Source of the DNA: a phage | Reading direction: 5' to 3' (one strand) | Sequence record: PZ386959.1 | DNA length: 64,000 nucleotides | In this document: positions 1 through 38,410 of the stretch, in pieces | Position numbering within the stretch: position 1 is the stretch's first letter | Layout: each line of letters opens with the position of its first letter | Notes under the pieces: model-generated | What the model was told of the DNA's origin: nothing | Database searches by the model: none | Seen by the model: the letters and a program-made list of their open reading frames with translations, nothing else | Program-made: the position numbers and the translations under genes

Positions 1-770
1 GTAGGTGCATGGAACTCTTCATTGTTCATCAGTTCATAAACCTGCTTCATATGGTTCTGGTAAATCTGAGTATCCCCAAAGACACCTATCAAGTATCGTG
101 GAGTGTATCCAGTCATCTTACAAAGAACTTCCAGAATAAAACCATAAGACGCAATATTAAATGGAAGCCCTAAAAAGGTGTCTACAGAACGCTGATACCA
201 TTGCAAGTCAACTTCACCTTCGTTGGTGATATAAATCTGAAACAGAACATGACAAGGTGCTAAAGCCATTGAGTTTGCTGCAATATCTGCTGCATTCCAA
301 GCATTAACAAGCATGTAACGGTCTGTGATATCACCTTTCATCTTCGTTACTAAGGTTTCTAACTGGTCTACAACACAACCATTATGACCTTCAAAGTTTC
401 TCCACTGAACCCCGTAGATTCTCCCACCTGCATCTTCTAACCAGTCTTGCTCAGAAGAATAGTTAGAGCTTAACCAACGTTTAAAATCATCTGACCAGAT
501 AGTCCAACGTTCTCCATCATTTTCACCCCAAGTGCGATAACGGAGTTCACCAAGTTTATTCTCACCGTTCAGGAACCATAAAGCTTCCCCAATAACTTGC
601 CGTGTAAACACCTGTTTAGATGTCAATAGTGGAAAACCAGTCCTCATATCAAAACGAAACTGAGGTGGAGCGAATGCAGAGATAACATCTCCAGTTCGTG
701 TAGTACGCAGTTCACCGACTGATAAAACATGGTTCAGGATATTTTTATAACTTGAATCTGCTTGTGACAT
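1..770 (-). CDS. thyA: thymidylate synthase (3' end runs off window start)
   Basis: Reverse-strand translation from ATG at 768-770 gives ThyA hallmarks: ALAPCH active-site motif and YQRSVDTFLGLPFNIASY; not in ORF track because it is edge-truncated. Confidence 0.85.
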   Translation of the reverse strand, partial: MSQADSSYKNILNHVLSVGELRTTRTGDVISAFAPPQFRFDMRTGFPLLTSKQVFTRQVIGEALWFLNGENKLGELRYRTWGENDGERWTIWSDDFKRWLSSNYSSEQDWLEDAGGRIYGVQWRNFEGHNGCVVDQLETLVTKMKGDITDRYMLVNAWNAADIAANSMALAPCHVLFQIYITNEGEVDLQWYQRSVDTFLGLPFNIASYGFILEVLCKMTGYTPRYLIGVFGDTQIYQNHMKQVYELMNNEEFHAP

Positions 771-771
771 A

Positions 772-1317
772 TCAAAAGTGTCCTTTTACTTGTGGAACAT
801 AAATTTCAAAGGTTGCTTTACCATCCTCTGATGGTTTTGACTGTACCTTTGTAAATACACGGTTATCATACAGCTTCTCAAAGAAGTTTTCAAAAGGTAA
901 ATGCACAGTGGCCTCTTCAGTAACTTTATGGAAGACTGTATGGAACACCACACCAGCATACGGTAAAGCATTGACAAGGACACCTGCACCACCAATTACA
1001 AAGACATCTTCATCAATAGAGCTATCAAGATACTTCAAAAATGCTCCAAATGACTCTTTACTGGCTTTAGCATACATTACATCATCTTTGCCAAAGTCTA
1101 TACCTAAGTATGGTACAGAATTTGTTAAGATGAGGTTTGCACGTTCTGGTAAAGGTTTACTACCCAGAGTCTTAAAAGTCTCATTACCCATGACTACTAA
1201 GTTATTTTTAGTGAGTCTCTTAAACTCTTGCATGTCCTGTTTATGTCGAGGCCACGGCATACCAGTTGGAGTACCAAACTCTCCATTTTCACCGCTTGCA
1301 AAGATTAATTTAATCAT
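772..1317 (-). CDS. frd: dihydrofolate reductase
   Basis: 181 aa ORF; MIKLIFA..GMPW..VVMG..FVIGG pattern typical of DHFR; adjacent to thyA. Confidence 0.8.
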   Translation of the reverse strand: MIKLIFASGENGEFGTPTGMPWPRHKQDMQEFKRLTKNNLVVMGNETFKTLGSKPLPERANLILTNSVPYLGIDFGKDDVMYAKASKESFGAFLKYLDSSIDEDVFVIGGAGVLVNALPYAGVVFHTVFHKVTEEATVHLPFENFFEKLYDNRVFTKVQSKPSEDGKATFEIYVPQVKGHF

Positions 1318-1574
1318 TTTGTAAATCCTCTCTTAATGAACCAGTTTATAACATTCTTCACAGCTTTATTACTATGGTAGATTAAGTGTGGTGTAGGTTG
1401 GTATGAACCATAAGCCCAGAATGATAGATGCTCACCGCAACCAACACATGTAGTACTCTCTTCAGCTATGTTCCCATTAACAATCACATGAACTTCACCT
1501 TGTAAGTCTGTACACCCACAATGTGGACAGCGGATAGGTGCTCCGTCAGGCTCATAGCAGTGTTCAATTTTCAT
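1314..1574 (-). CDS. small Cys-rich (zinc-ribbon-like) protein
   Basis: 86 aa ORF with CPHCGC and CVGCGEH pairs; start overlaps downstream gene by 4 nt. Confidence 0.4.
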   Translation of the reverse strand: MKIEHCYEPDGAPIRCPHCGCTDLQGEVHVIVNGNIAEESTTCVGCGEHLSFWAYGSYQPTPHLIYHSNKAVKNVINWFIKRGFTK

Positions 1575-2090
1575 CTATTTAACCTCAAAAACTGGCTCAA
1601 GAACTAATATAAAGTCTACACAGTCGTCTTCTTCATCCAGAATACCATCAAAATTCTTAGGAACGAAGTCGAAGAGGCTCATTGAGTAGCGGTCAGAAGT
1701 AACCCTGATAGCCCCTCCGATGTTCTCTACAGTTAATATTGTACGACTTTCTTTTACCTCATTCAGAAGATTACTCACAAAATCATCTAGGAAATACTTC
1801 ATCAGTGACTTGAAACCTTTAGGGTAATCTGTACCAGAGTATGTTTCAATCTGCGGTACAAGCTTAACATTTATACTAGTCTTTGTTAAGAACGTTTTAG
1901 AGAACATACTATCAGGTAACTTACAAACAGTCTTTCCAGTACCTTCATGCTCAATCTCAACAAAACCAGCTTCATCGCCACATGTAACTATTTTAAAAGA
2001 TGCTTCATTCTCATACTGTGAAGCCATAAACTTTTTAAGCATCTCTTTAAGGAAATCTGCATGAGCATCTTGTAAGTAGATATCAATCAT
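1575..2090 (-). CDS. hypothetical protein
   Basis: 171 aa ORF tightly packed in minus-strand operon. Confidence 0.45.
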   Translation of the reverse strand: MIDIYLQDAHADFLKEMLKKFMASQYENEASFKIVTCGDEAGFVEIEHEGTGKTVCKLPDSMFSKTFLTKTSINVKLVPQIETYSGTDYPKGFKSLMKYFLDDFVSNLLNEVKESRTILTVENIGGAIRVTSDRYSMSLFDFVPKNFDGILDEEDDCVDFILVLEPVFEVK

Positions 2091-2103
2091 AGTTAATCAC
2101 CTA

Positions 2104-2463
2104 TTATGGGAACAGACACTTAATGTCATCGTTTTTAAAAACAAAACTTGTGTAGTTGTGACCATCAACATCCAGCCAGACAGCCTGAACATCCACACCA
2201 TCAAGATTGTGGTAAAGCTCTTTGATGAAGTGGTCTTTCACAATCTGACTGCTGGTTGTTTCTAGCTTAATGTTCGAGATTGCTGAACCTACAGCCATAT
2301 AGCCCATGACCCGTTTCTTCTCAGTATGCTTAATCTTACCATCTTTGTAAGCCATAATGAGATTGGAAAGAATTTTTACACCATAATACTTTTCAAGGTG
2401 AGTAGGTACACCATAAAAGCCTAATGCGAAGTTTTCAGAGTGGATAATGTTTTCACGTTTCAT
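2104..2463 (-). CDS. hypothetical protein
   Basis: 119 aa ORF in same operon. Confidence 0.45.
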   Translation of the reverse strand: MKRENIIHSENFALGFYGVPTHLEKYYGVKILSNLIMAYKDGKIKHTEKKRVMGYMAVGSAISNIKLETTSSQIVKDHFIKELYHNLDGVDVQAVWLDVDGHNYTSFVFKNDDIKCLFP

Positions 2464-2464
2464 A

Positions 2465-2794
2465 TTAATCTGCCAACCTTAAATTGAAATTAACACCAAA
2501 TTTTTCACATACTCCCAACATATACTCAAGGGAGACATTACCAGTGAGATGGATTATGTTGGATACACGAGCCTGAGAGATACCACAAATTTTAGCAACT
2601 TGCTCTTGAGAAAGACCTCTGGATTTAATCTCTCTCTTAAAACGATGTGCAACGAAGTCTCTCATTTCGTCTACATCCATTGGACAAATATAACTCTCCA
2701 TTTCAGCCTCTCTATCAGCCTCCCAATCATCTTGTGGGGCATAAGGGTCAAAAACCTCATTCATCTTTCTTCTTCCGTTTGCGTGAAGTGTCAA
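2465..2794 (-). CDS. helix-turn-helix DNA-binding protein
   Basis: 109 aa; LSQEQVAKICGISQARVSNI resembles an HTH recognition segment. Confidence 0.45.
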   Translation of the reverse strand: MTLHANGRRKMNEVFDPYAPQDDWEADREAEMESYICPMDVDEMRDFVAHRFKREIKSRGLSQEQVAKICGISQARVSNIIHLTGNVSLEYMLGVCEKFGVNFNLRLAD

Positions 2795-2969
2795 TCAATG
2801 AATCTATGTTTGTAGCCCTAACCTTTTCACGTTCATCATTAAGATAATCATCAAGAGCCTTTTCAATCTGTGAATCATCTTGACAGATGACTGTAAAGAC
2901 TGTAAAGCCGTCTGTATCGTCAATTATCTTACCATAACCGCTTCTGGGATGTAACTTTTTAAGAGCCAT
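2757..2969 (-). CDS. hypothetical protein
   Basis: 70 aa ORF overlapping neighbour; weak. Confidence 0.3.
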   Translation of the reverse strand: MALKKLHPRSGYGKIIDDTDGFTVFTVICQDDSQIEKALDDYLNDEREKVRATNIDSLIDTSRKRKKKDE

Positions 2970-2970
2970 A

Positions 2971-3354
2971 TCAAATACCTGTGCAGCTTCTGTTTTCTAA
3001 GAAATACTCCACACCATACATAGCTTTTTGCATCAAATCTTCTTTAAACTGGATACGATGATTGAGCATAGCCTGTACATCAATATCATCAGGGTGCTTC
3101 TCTTTAATATTTGCAGATTGCAGGAAATACTCTGCAAGAACACGATACTGATAGTCAGTTACCTTATCAGTCATCTCTGTTAAAGACTCTTCAGAGATTG
3201 GTTTAAGTAGTTCACCTTTAGATAGGGCAACACCTTTAACAATCTGGCAAGTGTCTTCTGGAACACCTGATAAGTCCACATTTGGAAGTTCTGTTGCATT
3301 GACTGGTAAATTCATTGCCATAACCATTGCAGCAGCTAATAAAATCTTTTTCAT
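2971..3354 (-). CDS. secreted or periplasmic protein with signal peptide
   Basis: 127 aa; N-terminus MKKILLAAAMVMAMNLPVNA is signal-peptide-like; SD upstream. Confidence 0.5.
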   Translation of the reverse strand: MKKILLAAAMVMAMNLPVNATELPNVDLSGVPEDTCQIVKGVALSKGELLKPISEESLTEMTDKVTDYQYRVLAEYFLQSANIKEKHPDDIDVQAMLNHRIQFKEDLMQKAMYGVEYFLENRSCTGI

Positions 3355-28926: not shown

Positions 28927-29197
28927 AGAGAAGTGGGAAATTTTACCATTAGTGAGTGAAGGCGGTAACGGTTGTGAGATGTACATGATACGTGGTCATG
29001 TACCAGAACCAATTGCACTTGAGATGGTAAACAATTTTACAGATGGCTCTTACAAAGATTTAGGAGAGCCAACTATAAAGCATCAATGGGTCAAACCTGT
29101 ACCAGACAGCACAGGTAACTGTAGTGTACTTTATCACGTTGTAGACCCTGCAAAATGCAAATCTGCAATGGCAGTAACAAACGTAACTTTTGATTGA
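28919..29197 (+). CDS. hypothetical protein
   Basis: 92 aa ORF. Confidence 0.4.
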   Translation: MAKEKWEILPLVSEGGNGCEMYMIRGHVPEPIALEMVNNFTDGSYKDLGEPTIKHQWVKPVPDSTGNCSVLYHVVDPAKCKSAMAVTNVTFD

Positions 29198-29208
29198 GAG
29201 AGAAAACT

Positions 29209-30090
29209 ATGAAAACTGTTATTGAAGTCGTTGTCACCGCACAAGAGAAATTCTTCCACACAGAAAAATTTAATATCATCCAATTCCCATCTGGAGAAAT
29301 TGGTGGAAACTTCTCTGAAGAATTTGTTAAGTTTACTGAGCGTAATGCTGGTAAGATTGACAATGTTATACTTACTGTGCAGGGATATGATAAAGATACT
29401 CTGTTTGCATTAGCTTTGGCTAAGGATGCCGTTGACAGTCTTGTTCCATATAAGTCAGCGATGAAAACCGTTGTTTTCGGGTTCTTACCAAATGCTCGGT
29501 ATGACCGCCATATGTTCAAAGGTGATTCAGCAGCACTGAAAGCTTTTGCCAACCTCGTTAATGCAATGGGTTTTGATGCAGTATGTGCTCTTGACCCTCA
29601 CAGTAATGTTGCAGAAAACTTATTTAAGTGCTTTCAGAGCATGAAGCAAAAAGATGTAGCAGTACACTTTGCAAGTGACCCACGCATTGATTTCTTGGTA
29701 GCCCCAGATGCAGGCGCAGCTAAGAAGACTGAAGAGGCTGCTAAAGAGGTGGATAAACCATATATCACAATGTCTAAAGTGCGCAATCTTAAGACTGGAG
29801 AAATCACTGGTATGCGAATCCTTGACGATGTTGATTTGACCGATAAAACTGTCATGATTCTCGATGATATCTGTGATGGTGGTCGAACCTTCATAGAGGC
29901 AGCTAAACATCTTCGTGAAGCAGGTGCAAAACGTGTGGAACTCTATGTAACTCATGGCATTTTCTCTAAAGGGGTTGAAAACTTACTTGACAATGGTATT
30001 GACCATATCTACACTACAAACTCTTTAGGAGAAGCTAAAGACCGTGGCTTAACACATTATGCCCAAGTTACTGTAATTACCATTGATTGA
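29209..30090 (+). CDS. ribose-phosphate pyrophosphokinase family protein (Prs-like; candidate ADP-ribose pyrophosphokinase)
   Basis: About 293 aa; PNARYDRH (Prs YARQDR-like) and PRPP-binding loop MILDDICDGGRTF (DDxxDxGGT); directly upstream of Nampt-like gene. Confidence 0.6.
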   Translation: MKTVIEVVVTAQEKFFHTEKFNIIQFPSGEIGGNFSEEFVKFTERNAGKIDNVILTVQGYDKDTLFALALAKDAVDSLVPYKSAMKTVVFGFLPNARYDRHMFKGDSAALKAFANLVNAMGFDAVCALDPHSNVAENLFKCFQSMKQKDVAVHFASDPRIDFLVAPDAGAAKKTEEAAKEVDKPYITMSKVRNLKTGEITGMRILDDVDLTDKTVMILDDICDGGRTFIEAAKHLREAGAKRVELYVTHGIFSKGVENLLDNGIDHIYTTNSLGEAKDRGLTHYAQVTVITID

Positions 30091-30136
30091 AACTTTATAG
30101 GGGCTTCAAAGCCCCATTTTGAGAGAGATTAAAAAG

Positions 30137-31918
30137 ATGACTAAATCACTTTATGCAGTACCAGCAGGTTTAAACGCAGATGCTTACAAATCTGGTCACA
30201 TTTACCAGTACCCTAGTGCAACAGAGTACTTGATGTTTAACCTGACACCACGTAGTGACAAATGGTTTAACAGTCCCTTAGCAATTGATGGTGTGGTTGC
30301 TTTTGGTATTCAACGTTTTGTTAAAGATTACTTGATAGACCACTGGAACGCCACCTTCTTTGAACGTGACAAAAAAGAAGCAATTGACGAAATCTTAGAA
30401 GTCATGAACGGTGTTCTGGGTAAAGATGCTATTGGTCGAGAACATTGGGAAGCACTCCATGACTTAGGTTATCTTCCAGTTGAAGTATACGCTGTAGAAG
30501 AAGGCACAGTTGTCCCTATGCGTGTACCAATGATTGTCTTCCAGAACACTGTCTCAGGTTTCCATTGGGTAGCGGGGTATCTGGAAGATGCTTTCTCTGC
30601 TGAGATTTGGAAGGCTTGTACCATTGCAACTATTGCATTGCACTACAAACGTATTTGTAAGAAGTGGTCTGACCTTACTTGTGACAATGACTTACATTTG
30701 CCTTATCAGTGCCATGACTTTGCTATGCGTGGTATGTCTGGCTTTACTGATGACGCATTTAATGCTGTAGGTCACTTAACCAGCTTTAAAGGGACTGATA
30801 GCTTCCCTGCTGTATACACGGCTAAACGCATCTATGGGCAGTCCTACCCAATCTCTGATATTGGTAGTTCTGTACCAGCCACTGAACACTCTGTAATGTG
30901 TGCAAACATTGCTTGGGAAGGTGGTAATGAGTTGATTGAAGAAGAAAGACGCTTTAAAGGTGAGTTACAAACCTTCCGTCGTTTCTTAACAGAAACTTAC
31001 CCAACTGGTATTGCAAGTGTTGTTTCAGATACTTATAACTTCTGGAGAACTGTATCAGTTATATTACCAGAACTTCGTAAAGAGATTATGGAACGTGATG
31101 GTAAACTGGTAATTCGCCCTGACTCTGGAGACCCTGTACATATTGTCACAGGTTATAAAGCAATCCACTTAGAATGTGCTAAGAAGGCTTATTACGAGCA
31201 CCTAAGCAAGCTGGAAGCTAGTGACACAATGTTGAATGCTGTTCTGAACATGAAGCTTGAAAACATCAACTATGGCATTGCTGGATGGCTACTGTCAGAA
31301 GGATACGAAATGGTTGTTGACAGAGAAGACTTTGAAGTTGCTGATACAGTGATGTTGAAAAATGCTTATATGGTTGGTTCTGCAAACGTTGTAACACGTC
31401 CTGTAGCTGAGATTGATGGAGCTATTAAGACACTGTACAACATCTTTGGTGGAGCTATTAACTCTAAAGGGTTTAAGGTACTGGATGAGCATATCGGCCT
31501 TATCTATGGTGACTCTATCACTCTGGAACGTGCAAACGAAATCCTGAAGCGTCTGTATGAAATGGGTTTTGCAAGCTCTAACGTAGTGTTTGGTGTAGGC
31601 TCTTACACTTACCAGTACATGACTCGTGACACCTTTGCATTTGCTGTCAAAGCAACTCTTGCAAGCATTGGTGGTAAAGAGATTATGCTTGCAAAAGACC
31701 CTAAAACAGATAGTGGTGTTAAGAAATCTGCCTTTGGTGGTGTAGCACCTATGTGGGATGGTGATAAGCTGAAAGCTGTAGATGGCTATGGATTCCAGAG
31801 TTTTGCAGATGTACTTGACCACCCAGCTTGTGCTTTACGTTTAGTCTTTAGTGACTCTGAGCAGTTTGGTTACACAACTCTTGGTGATATTCGAAATAAT
31901 ATTGACAAGCAGCTTTAA
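30137..31918 (+). CDS. nicotinamide phosphoribosyltransferase family protein (Nampt/NadV-like)
   Basis: About 593 aa; family-level resemblance only (N-terminal DAYKSGH; length and placement next to a Prs-like gene); no catalytic motif verified. Confidence 0.55.
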   Translation: MTKSLYAVPAGLNADAYKSGHIYQYPSATEYLMFNLTPRSDKWFNSPLAIDGVVAFGIQRFVKDYLIDHWNATFFERDKKEAIDEILEVMNGVLGKDAIGREHWEALHDLGYLPVEVYAVEEGTVVPMRVPMIVFQNTVSGFHWVAGYLEDAFSAEIWKACTIATIALHYKRICKKWSDLTCDNDLHLPYQCHDFAMRGMSGFTDDAFNAVGHLTSFKGTDSFPAVYTAKRIYGQSYPISDIGSSVPATEHSVMCANIAWEGGNELIEEERRFKGELQTFRRFLTETYPTGIASVVSDTYNFWRTVSVILPELRKEIMERDGKLVIRPDSGDPVHIVTGYKAIHLECAKKAYYEHLSKLEASDTMLNAVLNMKLENINYGIAGWLLSEGYEMVVDREDFEVADTVMLKNAYMVGSANVVTRPVAEIDGAIKTLYNIFGGAINSKGFKVLDEHIGLIYGDSITLERANEILKRLYEMGFASSNVVFGVGSYTYQYMTRDTFAFAVKATLASIGGKEIMLAKDPKTDSGVKKSAFGGVAPMWDGDKLKAVDGYGFQSFADVLDHPACALRLVFSDSEQFGYTTLGDIRNNIDKQL

Positions 31919-31933
31919 AAGTATATGATAAGA

Positions 31934-31954
31934 GGCTCCTACGGGAGCCTTTTT
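31934..31954 (+). terminator. intrinsic terminator
   Basis: GGCTCC-TACG-GGAGCC followed by TTTTT. Confidence 0.7.
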
Positions 31955-31971: not shown

Positions 31972-32307
31972 ATGAAAATCAAAGAAATGAACATCAACAT
32001 TGTCTTAGAAGAACGTTGGGAGAACATCAAGAAGACTGAAGATGGTCATAAGTTCCTCAACAAAATTTTAGTAGCAGCTAAAGAAGAACTGACTGGAAAG
32101 GTTGCAGCAGCAATCACAATAAAGGTTTGTGTAAAAGGTCTTCCACAACATCACCAGTTTGCGCTTGACGAGTTTAAAGAAAGCTTCTACAATCCAAACA
32201 AACAGATGCTTGAAAGTAACTTTGCAGTGTCTACAAGTATCGTCCATGACAGAAGCTTTATCCTTTACAAGAATATGAGAGGTGAGTCATGCAAGCATAT
32301 TGGATAG
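31972..32307 (+). CDS. hypothetical protein
   Basis: 111 aa ORF. Confidence 0.45.
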   Translation: MKIKEMNINIVLEERWENIKKTEDGHKFLNKILVAAKEELTGKVAAAITIKVCVKGLPQHHQFALDEFKESFYNPNKQMLESNFAVSTSIVHDRSFILYKNMRGESCKHIG

Positions 32308-32465
32308 AAATTTTACTGTCACTTGGTAGTGTAGCAGTATTTGTCTACCTCCTTTGTAAGTACTTTGCAGAGCACAAAAAATGTGACTACTGTAATGGAG
32401 AGGGGTACATAAGGGCAGGTTGTTGCCCTATGTGTGGTGGTTCTGGTAAAATGTTTAATAAGTAA
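32289..32465 (+). CDS. small membrane protein with CxxC..CPxC
   Basis: 58 aa ORF (below track cutoff): MQAYWIEILLSLGSVAVFVYLLCKYF..CDYCNGEGYIRAGCCPMCGGSGKMFNK. Confidence 0.35.
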   Translation: MQAYWIEILLSLGSVAVFVYLLCKYFAEHKKCDYCNGEGYIRAGCCPMCGGSGKMFNK

Positions 32466-32493: not shown

Positions 32494-34860
32494 ATGCGCA
32501 TGGTAAACGACCACGCAGAAGTGATTAAGAGTTCAACTTCTTTAGAGACGTCTCAAGCACAGATTACAATGACACCTGAAATGTTCAGCCTTTTGAGTTC
32601 CGGTGTATACACATTTAAAGAAAGGGCAGTGATTCGTGAACTGTCATGTAACGCAGTAGATGCTCAAAAAGAAGCTGGAAAAGAGAACATCCCGTTCCAT
32701 GTGCATTTACCTACTCGATTTGAGCCTTACTTTGAAGTCCGTGACTTTGGAACTGGTTTAACCCATGACAAAGTAATGAGTTTGTATCTGAACTATGGGG
32801 CTTCTACGAAGAATGACTCTAATGACTACATTGGTGCAATGGGTATCGGCTCAAAGTCACCGTTTGCGATTGCTCAGTCATTCACAGTGTCTAGCTATGT
32901 TGATGGTGTTGTTAATAAGTACTCTGTTTACCTTGAGAATGGTATTCCTCAAGTAACTAAGCTTACTACTAACCAAACAAATGAACCTAATGGTTTAGCT
33001 GTACGTGTGGCAGTTGCTGACCACCGTATTTCAAAGTTCTTTGAAGAGGCTGGTAATGTATACTCATACTTTGCTGTAAAACCAGAGAGTAATGTGGAGT
33101 ATAATGATATATTAGCAGATATGGATGTGATTGCTCGTGAAGAAGGTGTCTATGATGCCATGACTCATAAGCATAGCTGGCGTTCAAGCAGCAATAGAAC
33201 AGAGTTTAACGTGGTTATGGGTAATATTGCCTACCCAGTTAATATGGAGGCATTACTTGGTGATGATTTCTTCAAAGTATTACCAGAATTTTTCCGCAGG
33301 AGCATAGACCTTGTAAACATCTACATGCCTATTGGTTCAGTTGCTATTGCAGCTTCTCGTGAAGCATTGCAGATGAATGACACGACAAAAAATGTTATCA
33401 TCGAGGCTACTAAAAAGATAACTGAAGCAATTACAAAGGATGTTATCAAGAAAGTTAATAGTCAACCTACACTCATGGATGCTGCACAGGCTTATGCTGA
33501 GTTACGCTTGAACTCACGAGAGATGTTTAATGCTGTGTGTCCAAAGCTAGAGTGGGGAGGCGTTAAGCTTGATTCTCTGGAAGAAGAATTACTAAACATT
33601 CGTCGTGGGATTATCTACGCAGAAGACGGCTCAGTCATTTATGAACGTGACGGCAAAGGCAATATTAAGGTTGACAGCAAAGGAAACAATATCCCTAAAG
33701 TTGACTACCTATACAATCCAGTTGCTTATGTCAAGTTCAACTCTTTAGAGAGTAAGATTCGTGCAACAGCACTTTCCTACACTCAAGAGGCAAGTATGTT
33801 CAATATCTTTGGTGCAATGCGTAAAAGTCAAATTGAACAGTTTTTGTTTGTTATTAATGACCGTCGCAATAAAAACGGTACTGAGAAGACTGTAGGCCGC
33901 AATCAGATTCTGCGTGGTGCATGTCGAGACTACGCCAGTGAGTCCAGTCTGTTTCACAGATATAATGGCATTGTGTTTGTATTCTCGACTGAAAAAGAGT
34001 TAGATGATTTAATCAATCTACACAAACTTGATAAAAGCTTGTTAAAGATTGTGAAAATGTCTGATAAGGAGCACCATTACCAGCGTAAAGAAGCTGTAAG
34101 GGGTGTTGTAAAACTCTGGAAAGCTGTTCCAGCAGAAGGTGTAGCTTCCTATAAAGAGGTTTCAGAGGACTTTGATACAATTGAAGAGCCTCAGCTTTAC
34201 ATTAAGGCAGTTGGCGACACAGTTGATGGCGAATGTTTTTGCTCATCTCCAGAAGATGTAGCCAAGTCAGTTGCTAATGTTACAGGGAAGACAGTCTATG
34301 TTTTCCGAAAAGCAAATTGGAAAAAGATACCAGAAGACTGGATTGAAGTAGATGAGAAACTCTTGAACGACAGCTTAACTGATGTTCATTGGATTAATCA
34401 TAACAGATATATGACACGCATCTACATGAATGGTGTTCTTGACCTGACAAGCAGTTGGATTATTGCCAGAAACTTTACGTTCAATAACAGGAAGATTTCT
34501 CGTGGCTATTGCTATTCACGGGATACAAACAAAACTATCTTCCTAGAAGGAAATGAAGATGCTGTAGAGGCAATGTTTGGTAAAATCCAATACGTTGCTG
34601 CACCATTTGCATACACTTATACTATTAGTGTATTGAAAACTTTGAAAGACTGTCTTGACAATGATACAAAGCTTTACAAGAAAATTAAGAAAGCTGGTGA
34701 CCGTATGGTCATTAAGGTGACAAACTACCTTTCAAAAAGAAAACAAGAAAACTTCTTGCTTTCTCATTTGGATTGGAATAAAGTGTCACCCATCGAAGTG
34801 AGTAAGTTCTTAGGCTTTGATGTAAAATGTGTTCCAGAAGGGACTACAATTTACGATTAA
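32494..34860 (+). CDS. GHKL-ATPase domain protein, rIIA-like
   Basis: 788 aa; N-terminal Bergerat-fold motifs IRELSCNAVDA (N-box ExxxNAxDA) and RDFGTGL (G1 box). Confidence 0.45.
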   Translation: MRMVNDHAEVIKSSTSLETSQAQITMTPEMFSLLSSGVYTFKERAVIRELSCNAVDAQKEAGKENIPFHVHLPTRFEPYFEVRDFGTGLTHDKVMSLYLNYGASTKNDSNDYIGAMGIGSKSPFAIAQSFTVSSYVDGVVNKYSVYLENGIPQVTKLTTNQTNEPNGLAVRVAVADHRISKFFEEAGNVYSYFAVKPESNVEYNDILADMDVIAREEGVYDAMTHKHSWRSSSNRTEFNVVMGNIAYPVNMEALLGDDFFKVLPEFFRRSIDLVNIYMPIGSVAIAASREALQMNDTTKNVIIEATKKITEAITKDVIKKVNSQPTLMDAAQAYAELRLNSREMFNAVCPKLEWGGVKLDSLEEELLNIRRGIIYAEDGSVIYERDGKGNIKVDSKGNNIPKVDYLYNPVAYVKFNSLESKIRATALSYTQEASMFNIFGAMRKSQIEQFLFVINDRRNKNGTEKTVGRNQILRGACRDYASESSLFHRYNGIVFVFSTEKELDDLINLHKLDKSLLKIVKMSDKEHHYQRKEAVRGVVKLWKAVPAEGVASYKEVSEDFDTIEEPQLYIKAVGDTVDGECFCSSPEDVAKSVANVTGKTVYVFRKANWKKIPEDWIEVDEKLLNDSLTDVHWINHNRYMTRIYMNGVLDLTSSWIIARNFTFNNRKISRGYCYSRDTNKTIFLEGNEDAVEAMFGKIQYVAAPFAYTYTISVLKTLKDCLDNDTKLYKKIKKAGDRMVIKVTNYLSKRKQENFLLSHLDWNKVSPIEVSKFLGFDVKCVPEGTTIYD

Positions 34861-34939
34861 AGTGTTTGACAAGGGGCTTCAAAGCCCCTTAAAATGGCAT
34901 CACAAAATGATTTATTAACTAACAAGAGAGAGTAATAAG

Positions 34940-36049
34940 ATGACTACTAAAACTAAAGCACAGATTGACGCAGAAATTTACAAACTGGTTAAAGAGGGCA
35001 AGCTGACTAAAACCGCTATTGCACAGAAATTTAACACCTCAACCCGTTCAGTCGGTCGTGCTGTAGAGCGTCATGAAGCAACCTTAAAAGGGAATAAGAA
35101 GGTGACTTCTACACCAGCTACGAAGACTTTGAAGCAAGTTGCTAAGACCTTTAAAAAGAAAGCTGACAAACCAGTTGAAAAGGTTGTTAAAGATGCTGTA
35201 CAGAAAGCTCCAGTAAATAAACTGCATGAAGCTATGCAGAAAGATGACAAGATTGAGTACATGATTACTGGTGACTCTGTAATTATGACTTACGGTTCAG
35301 AGTCTGAAATTGTTGAATCTACTCATCCGAACTATCAAGAGATTGTAGTTCATGTTGTGAAAGGTGAGTTTAAGAAAGCCTTTGAACTGATGAACATTCG
35401 TAAGTCTATCGAAAACTTCACTCAGGGTGCTATCACAATCAAAGGCGACAAACTATTCTACGGTGCTGTTGAGATGCGTTCTACTCTGGTTGACCGTATT
35501 CTTCACATGATGAAGACTGGAGATAAAGGTTTCGAACGCCTTGTGATGTTCTTCGAAAAACTGATGGAAAACCCATCTAAAGATTCCGTAGAACAACTTT
35601 GGGGCTTCGTATCTCACCTTGATGTTGAAATTGATGAAGAAGGCTACATCATTGGTTGGAAGAAAGTATCTACTCGTGAAGGCAAGCTGGTTGACTCCCA
35701 CACCTACAGAGTACCTAATGATTTGGGTAACATTGTAGAAATGCCACGTTGGATGGTTGATAATAACCGTAACGTGACTTGCTCTCAAGGTCTTCATGTT
35801 GGTGCTTGGGATTATGTTCGTTGTTTCTCAGGTGATACAATTCTGAAGGTTCGTGTCCATCCACGAGACGTTGTATCCGTACCAACTGATTACAACGATA
35901 TGAAGATGCGCTCGTCTCGTTATGAAGTTGCAGCAATCGTTGATAATCAACGTAAAGTGCTGAAAGCATGGGATGGCAAGACTGAAGCTTTACATGTCAT
36001 CGTTGGTACTGCTGGAGAACTTATCTCCCAACGTAAACGTGAAATCTAA
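34940..36049 (+). CDS. hypothetical protein (possible rIIB-like partner)
   Basis: 369 aa ORF directly downstream of the rIIA-like gene; no motif recognised. Confidence 0.3.
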   Translation: MTTKTKAQIDAEIYKLVKEGKLTKTAIAQKFNTSTRSVGRAVERHEATLKGNKKVTSTPATKTLKQVAKTFKKKADKPVEKVVKDAVQKAPVNKLHEAMQKDDKIEYMITGDSVIMTYGSESEIVESTHPNYQEIVVHVVKGEFKKAFELMNIRKSIENFTQGAITIKGDKLFYGAVEMRSTLVDRILHMMKTGDKGFERLVMFFEKLMENPSKDSVEQLWGFVSHLDVEIDEEGYIIGWKKVSTREGKLVDSHTYRVPNDLGNIVEMPRWMVDNNRNVTCSQGLHVGAWDYVRCFSGDTILKVRVHPRDVVSVPTDYNDMKMRSSRYEVAAIVDNQRKVLKAWDGKTEALHVIVGTAGELISQRKREI

Positions 36050-36065
36050 TAAGTAATTTCTTAAA

Positions 36066-36088
36066 AGGCTGCTTCGGCGGCCTTTTTT
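36066..36088 (+). terminator. intrinsic terminator
   Basis: AGGCTGC-TTCG-GCGGCCT followed by TTTTTT. Confidence 0.6.
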
Positions 36089-36149: not shown

Positions 36150-36698
36150 ATGAAGAAATTGATTCTAGGTTTGTGCTTAATGTTTACAGCACACTTATCT
36201 TATGCAGTTGACTGCCCAGAGCTATCAATTAGCCAAAAAGTAAACATGTTAAAAGCTTACCAGTATGGTGAGAATAACATGGGTAAAGGTTGGGGTATCA
36301 CTCTAGCTGCTATAGCCTTACAAGAGTCAGAGTTAGGTCTGAAGGTAGAGAATAAAAAGACACATGATTATGGTATTTTCCAGAATCACTTGAAGACTGT
36401 TGTAAAGCGTAACAAAATTAGTCCTAATGTGGCTAAAAAGAAACTCTTAAGAGACTTTGACTATGCTGCAAAGGAAACGCACAAAGAACTTGAATTTTGG
36501 ACAAAGGTGCATGGTCAGCCAAAGTCAAAGAAAACTTTACAAAAAGTTTTAGCATCATATAATGCTGGGTATTCGTACAGAATCCCTAAAGCTAAAAAAT
36601 ATTCTCAAGATGTCTATAACAACATGAAAGTTATCGCTCAATGTGAATTTGCAACAAACATTTCTAAGGTAAATCATGAAAAAATTAAGAAAGTTTGA
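36150..36698 (+). CDS. lytic transglycosylase (SLT domain) with signal peptide
   Basis: 182 aa; signal peptide MKKLILGLCLMFTAHLSYA; AIALQESELG and DYGIFQNH match SLT catalytic E-S and DYGxMQ motifs. Confidence 0.5.
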   Translation: MKKLILGLCLMFTAHLSYAVDCPELSISQKVNMLKAYQYGENNMGKGWGITLAAIALQESELGLKVENKKTHDYGIFQNHLKTVVKRNKISPNVAKKKLLRDFDYAAKETHKELEFWTKVHGQPKSKKTLQKVLASYNAGYSYRIPKAKKYSQDVYNNMKVIAQCEFATNISKVNHEKIKKV

Positions 36699-37371
36699 TG
36701 AAGTACTGTGTCATGCTTATGACTTACATCCTCATGAGTTAGGTCTTGATTCCTGTGTATGGACTCCAGAACAGTGTAGGGATTTTGAAGACACTGCAAG
36801 AGAAGTTGTATGTTCACTTGAAGAGTTTCACACATCAGAGCCAATTGTGAATGTTGTAGATAAAGAGACTGGACAAACTATAGGGGTAAGTCGTGATAGT
36901 TTAGTCATAGTCAATAAAGACCTTGTAGAAAAAGGTAACCTCATCTTAGCAGATATTGATGGTGTTCTTACAAATTTTAATCACGAAGATTGCTCAACGG
37001 AATTGACTGATGGGTCATTCTCACAGTACACTAATCTTCTTGACTCTGTAAGAGCAAAACCAACGTATGTTTTTAGTATTATTGATGCAATTGCTAATCA
37101 TGCTGCCATTGGACTCTTGACAGCGAGAGGTGAATCTCAGAGAATACCTACTGAGATGTTTTTAAGGCATAACATAGAGCATGATTACTTGCTTTTTATG
37201 CGTGGTTTTGGAACTAACTCTATAAGTGCAGAAAGTTTGAAAGTGAGGATGATTCAGTCTTGCATTCTTCCTTACTTTAATATAGTATGCTTTATAGAAG
37301 ATACAGAGAAGAATGTTCAGAAGGTAAACAGAATCCTTCCACACATTAAAACTATGTTAGTTAAACATTGA
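36676..37371 (+). CDS. hypothetical protein, possible HAD-like hydrolase
   Basis: 231 aa; LADIDGVLT resembles HAD motif I (DxDGV) but the motif is not N-terminal; weak. Confidence 0.3.
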   Translation: MKKLRKFDEVLCHAYDLHPHELGLDSCVWTPEQCRDFEDTAREVVCSLEEFHTSEPIVNVVDKETGQTIGVSRDSLVIVNKDLVEKGNLILADIDGVLTNFNHEDCSTELTDGSFSQYTNLLDSVRAKPTYVFSIIDAIANHAAIGLLTARGESQRIPTEMFLRHNIEHDYLLFMRGFGTNSISAESLKVRMIQSCILPYFNIVCFIEDTEKNVQKVNRILPHIKTMLVKH

Positions 37372-37382
37372 GAGAAGAACTT

Positions 37383-37847
37383 ATGAACAATATCATTACG
37401 GTAGCACTGGACGATACGGCAAACAAATCTGAAGTAGTTCGTAAAATGATTCAAGGTAACTTTGAAGGTAAAATTTTCCGTGCTGTTAATGTAAAAGCTG
37501 ATGGTAGCATTCGCGAATATCGTGCATTGTTGAACGTTAAGAAGCACGTAAAAGGTGTTGGTTCAACGACTGCACACAAAGAAAACCTGATGACTATCTA
37601 TGATATGGGTAAGGCTTCAGAGTTAGGTGCTGAAGGTATCGTTAAAGAAGGCGCTCCGTATCGCTCTTTCAATCTGGAAACTACTCTTATGCTTTCCTTT
37701 ACAAGTGGTTCCAAAACAATCACTTATCTCTTTACTGATGCTGCAACGGTATCTGCTATTAAGGATAGTACTGTCAAAGCTGGCGTAGTTGCTGCTGCAA
37801 AAGCTTCTTCGATGGCTGCGAATATCCTTGCTAAAGTCCTCGGTTAA
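37383..37847 (+). CDS. hypothetical protein
   Basis: 154 aa from MNNIITV. Confidence 0.45.
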   Translation: MNNIITVALDDTANKSEVVRKMIQGNFEGKIFRAVNVKADGSIREYRALLNVKKHVKGVGSTTAHKENLMTIYDMGKASELGAEGIVKEGAPYRSFNLETTLMLSFTSGSKTITYLFTDAATVSAIKDSTVKAGVVAAAKASSMAANILAKVLG

Positions 37848-37868
37848 GGTTAAGATACAGGCTCCTTC

Positions 37869-37890
37869 GGGAGCCTTTTTCATTTTAGGA
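37869..37890 (+). terminator. intrinsic terminator
   Basis: AGGCTCC-TTCG-GGAGCCT followed by TTTTT. Confidence 0.7.
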
Positions 37891-37899
37891 GATTGTTAA

Positions 37900-38247
37900 A
37901 TGACATTTAAAGAGTTCTGTCAAGCTACTTTCATAATTGTTTTCTTAGTTGGGGCGGGTGTCTGGGGAGGGTACTCTTACAGAGACTACCAAGTTGCTGA
38001 AACTGAGCTAAACAATCAAAAGCTCATAAGTGTTGCTAAAGATGCTTATCAGGAAGGATTAGTTACACTGAGCACCAATTACAAAAATGATTTGAAAGAT
38101 GTGCTTGCTAAGAATAAGCACACAAAAGAGGTACTAACATATGAAAAAACTAAGCCAGAGTTTTATAATGTTTGTGTTACTGATAATTATGTCAGGGTGT
38201 TCAACGAACAAAGTGAACAGTACATTCAAAAACTCCCAAGTAAGTGA
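37900..38247 (+). CDS. membrane-anchored protein
   Basis: 115 aa, N-terminal TM helix. Confidence 0.4.
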   Translation: MTFKEFCQATFIIVFLVGAGVWGGYSYRDYQVAETELNNQKLISVAKDAYQEGLVTLSTNYKNDLKDVLAKNKHTKEVLTYEKTKPEFYNVCVTDNYVRVFNEQSEQYIQKLPSK

Positions 38248-38410
38248 GAGTGATAAGTACACTCAAGAAGAGTCAAGATTCACTGTCAAAGGTAATACTG
38301 GTAGTGATGTGGCAGCAGCCCTTGAGTTTTATCGTGATGGTTTTTACCAGTGCACAATTAAAGCTAATAACCTTATTGACATGATTTTATTAGGGAATAA
38401 GCAGCAATGA
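38141..38410 (+). CDS. putative lipoprotein
   Basis: 89 aa; MKKLSQSFIMFVLLIIMSGC lipobox-like; overlaps previous ORF in another frame. Confidence 0.35.
   Translation: MKKLSQSFIMFVLLIIMSGCSTNKVNSTFKNSQVSESDKYTQEESRFTVKGNTGSDVAAALEFYRDGFYQCTIKANNLIDMILLGNKQQ

Follow-up and report, generated by a model that had tools for sequence, protein, structure and literature searches.

Two adjacent genes of the rII family

The subject of this analysis is a 64,000-nucleotide stretch of phage DNA (sequence record PZ386959.1; hereafter the window), and within it the pair of genes at positions 32494-36049 of the plus strand. The phage is a Felixounavirus, and the pair consists of the FelixO1-type versions of T4 rIIA and rIIB, a locus that is widespread, has been annotated before and is already known. 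The upstream gene, rIIA (32494-34860, plus strand), is an open reading frame (ORF) for a protein of 788 residues (89 kDa, isoelectric point 6.5), and rIIB (34940-36049, plus strand), which starts 79 nucleotides 3' of it in the same orientation, encodes 369 residues (42 kDa, isoelectric point 9.3); a purine-rich ribosome-binding site stands ahead of each. Both ORFs had been picked out at these positions in an earlier reading made from the letters alone (the sequence-only reading), which took the first product to be rIIA-like and suggested that the second could be its rIIB counterpart, and the comparisons described below uphold both assignments.

A search with a 4.5-kb query centred on the pair finds matches in 278 phage records. 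Felixounavirus genomes, Andreotti, LF110P2 and LinBro among them, rank best, with nucleotide identities of 95-98%, and phage ULIM3 encodes an rIIB that is 100% identical to that of the window. Annotated relatives on deposit already name both genes rIIA and rIIB, under product names that include 'lysis inhibitor', 'membrane integrity protector' and 'protector from prophage-induced early lysis'. One record, MG065668.1, is deposited as 'Campylobacter phage A126' (43 kb), and its rIIA is 97.1% identical to an Escherichia coli Felixounavirus protein; the record is probably a Felixounavirus sequence, either mislabelled or a contaminant, and not a Campylobacter phage.

On sequence comparison, the 788-residue protein belongs to the rIIA family over its full length and the 369-residue protein is a genuine rIIB. 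Residues 1-770 of the former match positions 1-716 of the 725-position phrog_612 'RIIA' profile at E = 8e-189, and BLASTP aligns residues 24-317 with T4 rIIA at 31% identity (E = 5e-37); the C-terminal ~450 residues have diverged from T4 rIIA past pairwise detection by BLASTP. For rIIB the match to the phrog_609 'RIIB' profile has E = 1e-88, and the alignment with T4 rIIB (BLASTP, residues 11-339, 38% identity, E = 2e-60) covers nearly the whole protein. Precomputed matches to PF26926 (Phage_T4_rIIB) are on record for homologues of this rIIB, including 98%-identical and more distant ones. The window protein itself has no PF26926 match in the local Pfam copy, which apparently lacks that model; this would account for the empty Pfam result for the rIIB core, where the C-terminal fragment returned nothing at E values up to 10.

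Several observations tie rIIA and rIIB together as one functional unit. Among 50,697 phage records rIIA occurs in 2,915 and rIIB in 2,869, with essentially identical breakdowns by genus, and an ORF homologous to rIIA lies directly 5' of rIIB on two distant metagenomic phage contigs (E = 2e-25 and 6e-35). Phage RB43 (NC_007023.1, positions 1-3150, minus strand) carries a natural single-ORF rIIA-rIIB fusion (YP_238977, 1,049 residues), of which residues 763-1038 align with window rIIB at 33% identity (E = 4e-49). A fusion of this type explains why the 1,055-position phrog_609 profile matches both window ORFs, and, as a Rosetta-stone case, it is evidence for the two proteins functioning as a single unit. 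Together with strict co-occurrence and co-essentiality, the RB43 protein points to a physical association of rIIA with rIIB.

Predicted architecture of rIIA and rIIB

The GHKL (Bergerat) ATP-binding domain of rIIA occupies approximately residues 25-200 (32566-33093, plus strand), and all three of its signature motifs are present on that strand: the N-box, E49-LSC-N53-AV-D56 (ExxxNxxD; 32638-32661), the G1 box, D84-F-G-T-G88 (DxGxG; 32743-32757), and the G2 box or ATP-lid, G114-AM-G-I-G119 (GxxGxG; 32833-32850). The first two had been recognized in the sequence-only reading as ELSCNAVDA and DFGTGL. In an alignment of 40 homologues extending down to 23% identity, E49, N53, D56, D84, G86, G114, G117, G119 and K121 are all invariant, and because these residues are retained across such diverse proteins the motifs are not chance matches. 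A second, transducer-like domain follows at approximately residues 201-330 (33094-33483, plus strand) and bears the invariant motif A-S-R289-E290-x-L, and the remainder of the protein, residues 331-788 (33484-34857, plus strand), consists of confidently modelled alpha/beta domains that are specific to the rII family.

The closest structural matches to the rIIA model are the Hsp90 protein TRAP1 (score 17.4 over 343 residues) and GRP94 (16.9 over 319), followed by MORC3 (15.4 over 265), the MutL N-terminal domain (14.7 over 245) and the T6 topoisomerase II ATPase domain (14.5 over 261), with histidine kinases reaching 8 or less over about 100 residues; sequence identity in these matches is 10-19%, and they are limited to the first ~340 residues. 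This ranking places the first ~330 residues with the two-domain ATPases of the gyrase/Hsp90/MutL/MORC type and not with GHKL proteins of the kinase type. A profile of the rIIA family finds the TRAP1/Hsp90 N-domain among Protein Data Bank (PDB) sequences (E = 4e-5), and NCBIfam returns sub-threshold matches to HSP90-family and sacsin ATP-binding domains; single-sequence searches against PDB sequences gave nothing meaningful, and full-length rIIA found nothing in Pfam at E <= 0.01. PF13589 is present in some rIIA homologues. Iyer et al. (2021; PMC7824862) describe rIIA proteins as having a GHKL ATPase domain at the N-terminus and a variable domain after it, and the window protein fits this architecture. 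Transmembrane and signal segments were sought in both proteins in view of the 'membrane integrity protector' label, and none was predicted in either; the maximum 19-residue Kyte-Doolittle hydropathy of rIIA is 1.31.

The model of rIIB (predicted local distance difference test score, pLDDT, 82.1) comprises an N-terminal helix-turn-helix (HTH), a Lys-rich linker and a conserved core. The HTH is a three-helix domain at residues 5-51 (34952-35092, plus strand), and it is absent from several distant members of the rIIB family in which the C-terminal domain is retained. The linker, residues 54-91 (35099-35212, plus strand), is predicted to be disordered (pLDDT < 50) and varies in length, with insertions of up to about 180 residues at this position in other phages; 14 lysines lie within residues 46-100. 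The core, or Phage_T4_rIIB domain, spans residues ~94-345 (35219-35974, plus strand) and includes the invariant motif T-C281-S-x-G284-L285-H286-V (35777-35800, plus strand), which reads TCSRGLHV at the equivalent place in T4 rIIB. Eight residues, F204, G235, K241, C281, G284, L285, H286 and P308, are invariant in 43 rIIB sequences, and all are found in the window protein. Full-length rIIB against Pfam, like its profile against PDB, gave weak HTH matches only, and a structure search of BFVD returned rIIB-family proteins only. A resemblance of the core to ART-like folds is marginal in score and has no support from sequence.

Divergence from the orthologous genes of phage Bas63 is unevenly distributed along the pair. 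For rIIA, nucleotide identity to Bas63 is about 94-97%, with a smaller divergent patch of 84-85% at 33094-33293 (codons ~200-267), while over the last ~350 nucleotides of rIIB (35694-36049; the last ~120 codons) it falls to 58-80%. Across the genus, 88 records fall in the 80-95% identity bands for rIIB versus 5 for rIIA. Such mosaic divergence suggests allele exchange or diversifying selection acting on rIIB.

Probable counter-defence function and rival explanations

In Bas63, PhageMaP (PMC11482910, a preprint) identified g84 and g85, the rIIA and rIIB genes, as countering QatABCD: deletion of either lowers plating efficiency by 1e4-1e5-fold, and complementation largely restores plating on qatABCD. 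In CRISPRi-ART experiments, knock-down of rIIA/rIIB in T4, MM02, EdH4, SUSP1 and N4 made these phages sensitive to lambda RexAB and had no effect on Rex-free hosts (PMC11879866); the five phages represent four subfamilies, SUSP1 belonging with the window phage in the Ounavirinae. HIDEN-SEQ found T4 rIIA/rIIB insertions to be depleted on RexAB and the RIIA/RIIB orthologues of Bas37 to be important on clinical isolates (bioRxiv 10.1101/2025.11.20.689424). From the bacterial side, a CARD-gasdermin system senses T6 RIIB, a protein that is toxic if expressed by itself (PMC10312443). Conditional essentiality on defence-carrying hosts has been demonstrated in this literature for proteins that are near-identical or homologous to those of the window.

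These studies, on the 97.5%-identical Bas63 rIIA and on other rII modules, support the link to host defence that the sequence-only reading had drawn. Its further statement, that rII-like proteins modulate lysis and abortive-infection exclusion, holds for exclusion and fails for lysis, insofar as the T4 lysis-inhibition machinery is meant. Lysis inhibition in T4 depends on the T holin together with RI and RIII, the influence of rII on it comes 'by an otherwise unrelated mechanism', and the label 'lysis inhibitor' is historical (PMC6832632).

The reading we prefer, to which we assign a probability of about 0.88, is that the window pair is a Felixounavirus rIIA-rIIB counter-defence module in which rIIA, as a two-domain GHKL ATPase, acts with rIIB against abortive infection. 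In such a module rIIA would be a soluble or peripheral 89-kDa protein with its ATPase, which has every catalytic and nucleotide-binding motif, in the N-terminal ~330 residues and a family-specific remainder of ~450, and rIIB a basic 42-kDa protein whose HTH and flexible Lys-rich linker precede the Phage_T4_rIIB domain. By analogy with characterized GHL-type ATPases, rIIA would hydrolyse ATP and work as an ATP-driven dimerizing clamp, on a target that may be the membrane, a nucleoprotein or a defence protein. Early in infection the two proteins would cooperate, probably within one complex, and would keep abortive-infection systems from firing: QatABCD in the lineage of the window phage, and elsewhere lambda RexAB, as in T4, N4, a Vequintavirus and the related Ounavirinae phage SUSP1. 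On hosts without such defence systems the pair would be dispensable.

Several observations weigh against this interpretation or narrow it. The N-terminal fragment of rIIA falls below the Pfam HATPase_c threshold (13.9 bits against a cut-off of 26.4, E = 0.077), so that membership of the GHKL superfamily rests on motifs, profile and fold, and the searchable literature holds no demonstration of ATPase activity, or other biochemical data on it, for any rIIA. The genetics all comes from phages other than that of the window. The homology of '>80%' between the Bas63 proteins and T4 RIIA/B stated in the PhageMaP study is not borne out by BLASTP with the near-identical window proteins, which gives 31% for rIIA (over the N-terminal 300 residues) and 38% for rIIB. 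In addition, window rIIB differs from the tested Bas63 rIIB at 17% of its residues, with the low 3' nucleotide identity described above, and as a consequence the defence specificity of the two alleles could differ.

Three other explanations were weighed. The pair might act on DNA or nucleoprotein and not on the membrane, with rIIB serving as a DNA-binding adaptor or as a transcription factor of the HTH class and rIIA as an ATP-driven clamp on DNA, of the MORC, MutL or topoisomerase kind; RexAB or QatABCD would then be evaded indirectly, through the concealment or remodelling of an intermediate of replication or recombination sensed by those systems. We consider this unlikely, though a live alternative to the traditional picture of the pair as protectors of the membrane. 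The HTH and basic isoelectric point of rIIB, the likeness of rIIA to MORC, MutL and topoisomerases and the lack of membrane segments would fit it, but DNA binding is a prediction, the HTH is missing from distant homologues that keep the C-terminal domain and is not part of the conserved core, and the two highest-ranking structural matches of rIIA are chaperone-type Hsp90s and not DNA enzymes. The classical and the recent literature, moreover, assigns the proteins to the membrane and credits them with counteracting its depolarization. An action on DNA would in any case refine the mechanism without contradicting the identity of the pair as rIIA and rIIB.

It is very improbable that the two proteins are lysis inhibitors in the literal sense, operating in holin/antiholin timing to delay lysis on superinfection. 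Membership of the T4 lysis-inhibition system (T holin, RI/RIII antiholins) calls for a membrane or periplasmic holin-binding protein, and neither rIIA nor rIIB has a membrane or periplasmic segment, no search for rI or t homologues in the phage having been made; rII knock-downs show no phenotype on defence-free hosts (PMC11879866), and past the rII terminator, some 1.8 kb away, the spanin genes form a unit of their own. These findings stand against the product names in deposited records, the PHROG category 'lysis' and the rapid-lysis plaques historically given by T4 rII mutants, from which the explanation derives. Finally, the 788-residue protein could be imagined as a generic GHKL enzyme, whether an Hsp90-like chaperone, a MutL-like repair factor or a topoisomerase subunit, with an unrelated gene downstream. 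Its best structural matches are indeed to Hsp90/TRAP1, MORC, MutL and topoisomerase II, with weak NCBIfam matches to the HSP90 family besides, but these stop at residue ~340 and share no more than 19% identity, whereas the full-length match is to the rIIA profile (E = 8e-189) and the downstream protein is rIIB (E = 2e-60 against T4). The sequence-only reading had named a MutL-, Hsp90- or topoisomerase-type fold without an rIIB-like partner as the outcome that would tell against it; the folds do match those proteins, which is to be expected of an rIIA, but the partner is there, and we regard a generic enzyme as next to impossible.

Genomic surroundings and comparison with known systems

The rII unit ends at a strong intrinsic terminator (36063-36086, plus strand) with a 10-bp GC-rich stem followed by a T run, and its upstream limit is the intrinsic terminator (31930-31953, plus strand) that lies 3' of the Namat gene. 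Between the latter and rIIA are two small conserved ORFs, of 111 residues (31972-32307, plus strand; phrog_4262) and 58 residues (32289-32465, plus strand; phrog_3931), which from their spacing would belong to the same unit. The shorter product has an N-terminal hydrophobic helix and a zinc-ribbon-like CxxC...CxxCxGxG motif, and its Bas63 counterpart is labelled 'putative membrane protein'.

The spacer between rIIA and rIIB contains a sigma-70-like promoter consensus, TTGACA-18 nucleotides-TAAAAT (34866-34895, plus strand; 11/12 consensus match), and within it a GC-rich hairpin (34871-34890) with a perfect 8-bp stem (34871-34878 / 34883-34890) and a TCAA loop, folding as RNA at -17.1 kcal/mol (z = -2.4). 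LinBro and Bas63 have an identical stem, and LinBro has a different loop. This element may be an internal promoter for rIIB, a stabilizer of the 3' end of the rIIA message, both of these, or a weak attenuator. The idea that a hairpin within a promoter is a repeated regulatory cassette was rejected, this being the single GC-rich case in the 64-kb window, where other promoter-spacer stems are AT-rich or 5-7 bp long.

Upstream of the rII unit, Prs-like and NAMPT-like genes (29194-30090 and 30119-31918, plus strand) correspond to Bas63 genes 79 and 80, the founding example of NARP1 (Adps and Namat), which rebuilds NAD+ from ADP-ribose and nicotinamide and defeats SIR2-HerA, Thoeris, DSR and similar NAD-depleting defences. 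In LinBro an HNH homing endonuclease gene lies between the two NARP1 genes; it is not found in the window. Since NARP1 adjoins rII, two counter-defence modules lie side by side, a context that fits a counter-defence role. Beyond the rII terminator, 36150-38410 (plus strand) holds a gene for a secreted SLT-like transglycosylase ('putative lysin' in some relatives), a polynucleotide-kinase-like ORF that overlaps the preceding gene by 23 nucleotides, and an overlapping i-spanin/o-spanin pair at 37900-38410 (plus strand). Farther along, 58545-63556 (plus strand) holds 26 tRNA genes for 19 of the 20 amino acids (no Trp), two of them tRNA-Met(CAT); such a cluster is to be expected in phages of the FelixO1 type.

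The rII locus is one of the oldest genetic systems of molecular biology. Correct annotation of rIIA and rIIB matters for phage therapy and for the prediction of host range: Felixounaviruses with the rII pair and adjacent NARP1 should resist defences of the QatABCD, RexAB and NAD-depletion types, and those with rIIB may conversely be sensed by systems that detect this protein.

Of the systems with which the window can be compared, Bas63 (JohannRWettstein, MZ501086.1), another Felixounavirus, has the same gene order and neighbours: the NARP1 pair, two small ORFs, rIIA, rIIB, the SLT-like gene, the polynucleotide-kinase-like gene and the spanins. Its rIIA (bas63_0084) is 97.5% and its rIIB (bas63_0085) 83% identical to the window proteins, the latter being a different allele with its divergence concentrated in the terminal codons noted above, and between Namat and the rII unit Bas63 carries an additional small ORF, bas63_0081, that the window is without. 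The window locus conforms to the family in every respect and adds no new component, architecture or context to what has been deposited or published for Bas63 and its relatives; the genes are annotated in dozens of near-identical genomes, and the genetics has been done in a congeneric phage.

The GHL-type GHKL ATPases (Hsp90/TRAP1, MORC, the MutL N-terminal domain and type II topoisomerase) share with window rIIA the Bergerat fold, a transducer-like domain and the N-box, G1 and G2 motifs. Apart from the low sequence identity, rIIA differs from them in having no Hsp90 middle or C-terminal domain, MutL endonuclease, TOPRIM or CW/coiled-coil region, and in having instead a family-specific C-terminal region of ~450 residues and an obligate rIIB partner, its own ATPase role being a predicted one. 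The GHL ATPases are ATP-driven dimerizing clamps, and by analogy this would be the likeliest working model for rIIA. In RB43 the two rII proteins form one polypeptide, whereas in the window they are encoded by two genes with a 79-nucleotide spacer that holds the promoter-like element and hairpin.

The T4 pair itself (rIIA NP_049616, rIIB NP_049889) is homologous to that of the window and shares its GHKL motifs and the TCSxGLHV motif of the rIIB core, and its genes are likewise adjacent and co-oriented. T4 rIIB can be aligned with the window protein from end to end and T4 rIIA only over its N-terminal ~300 residues, and the Lys-rich linker of window rIIB is the longer one (369 residues in all, compared with 312 for T4). 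The T4 pair protects against abortive infection of the RexAB type, and in the lineage of the window phage the documented target is QatABCD.

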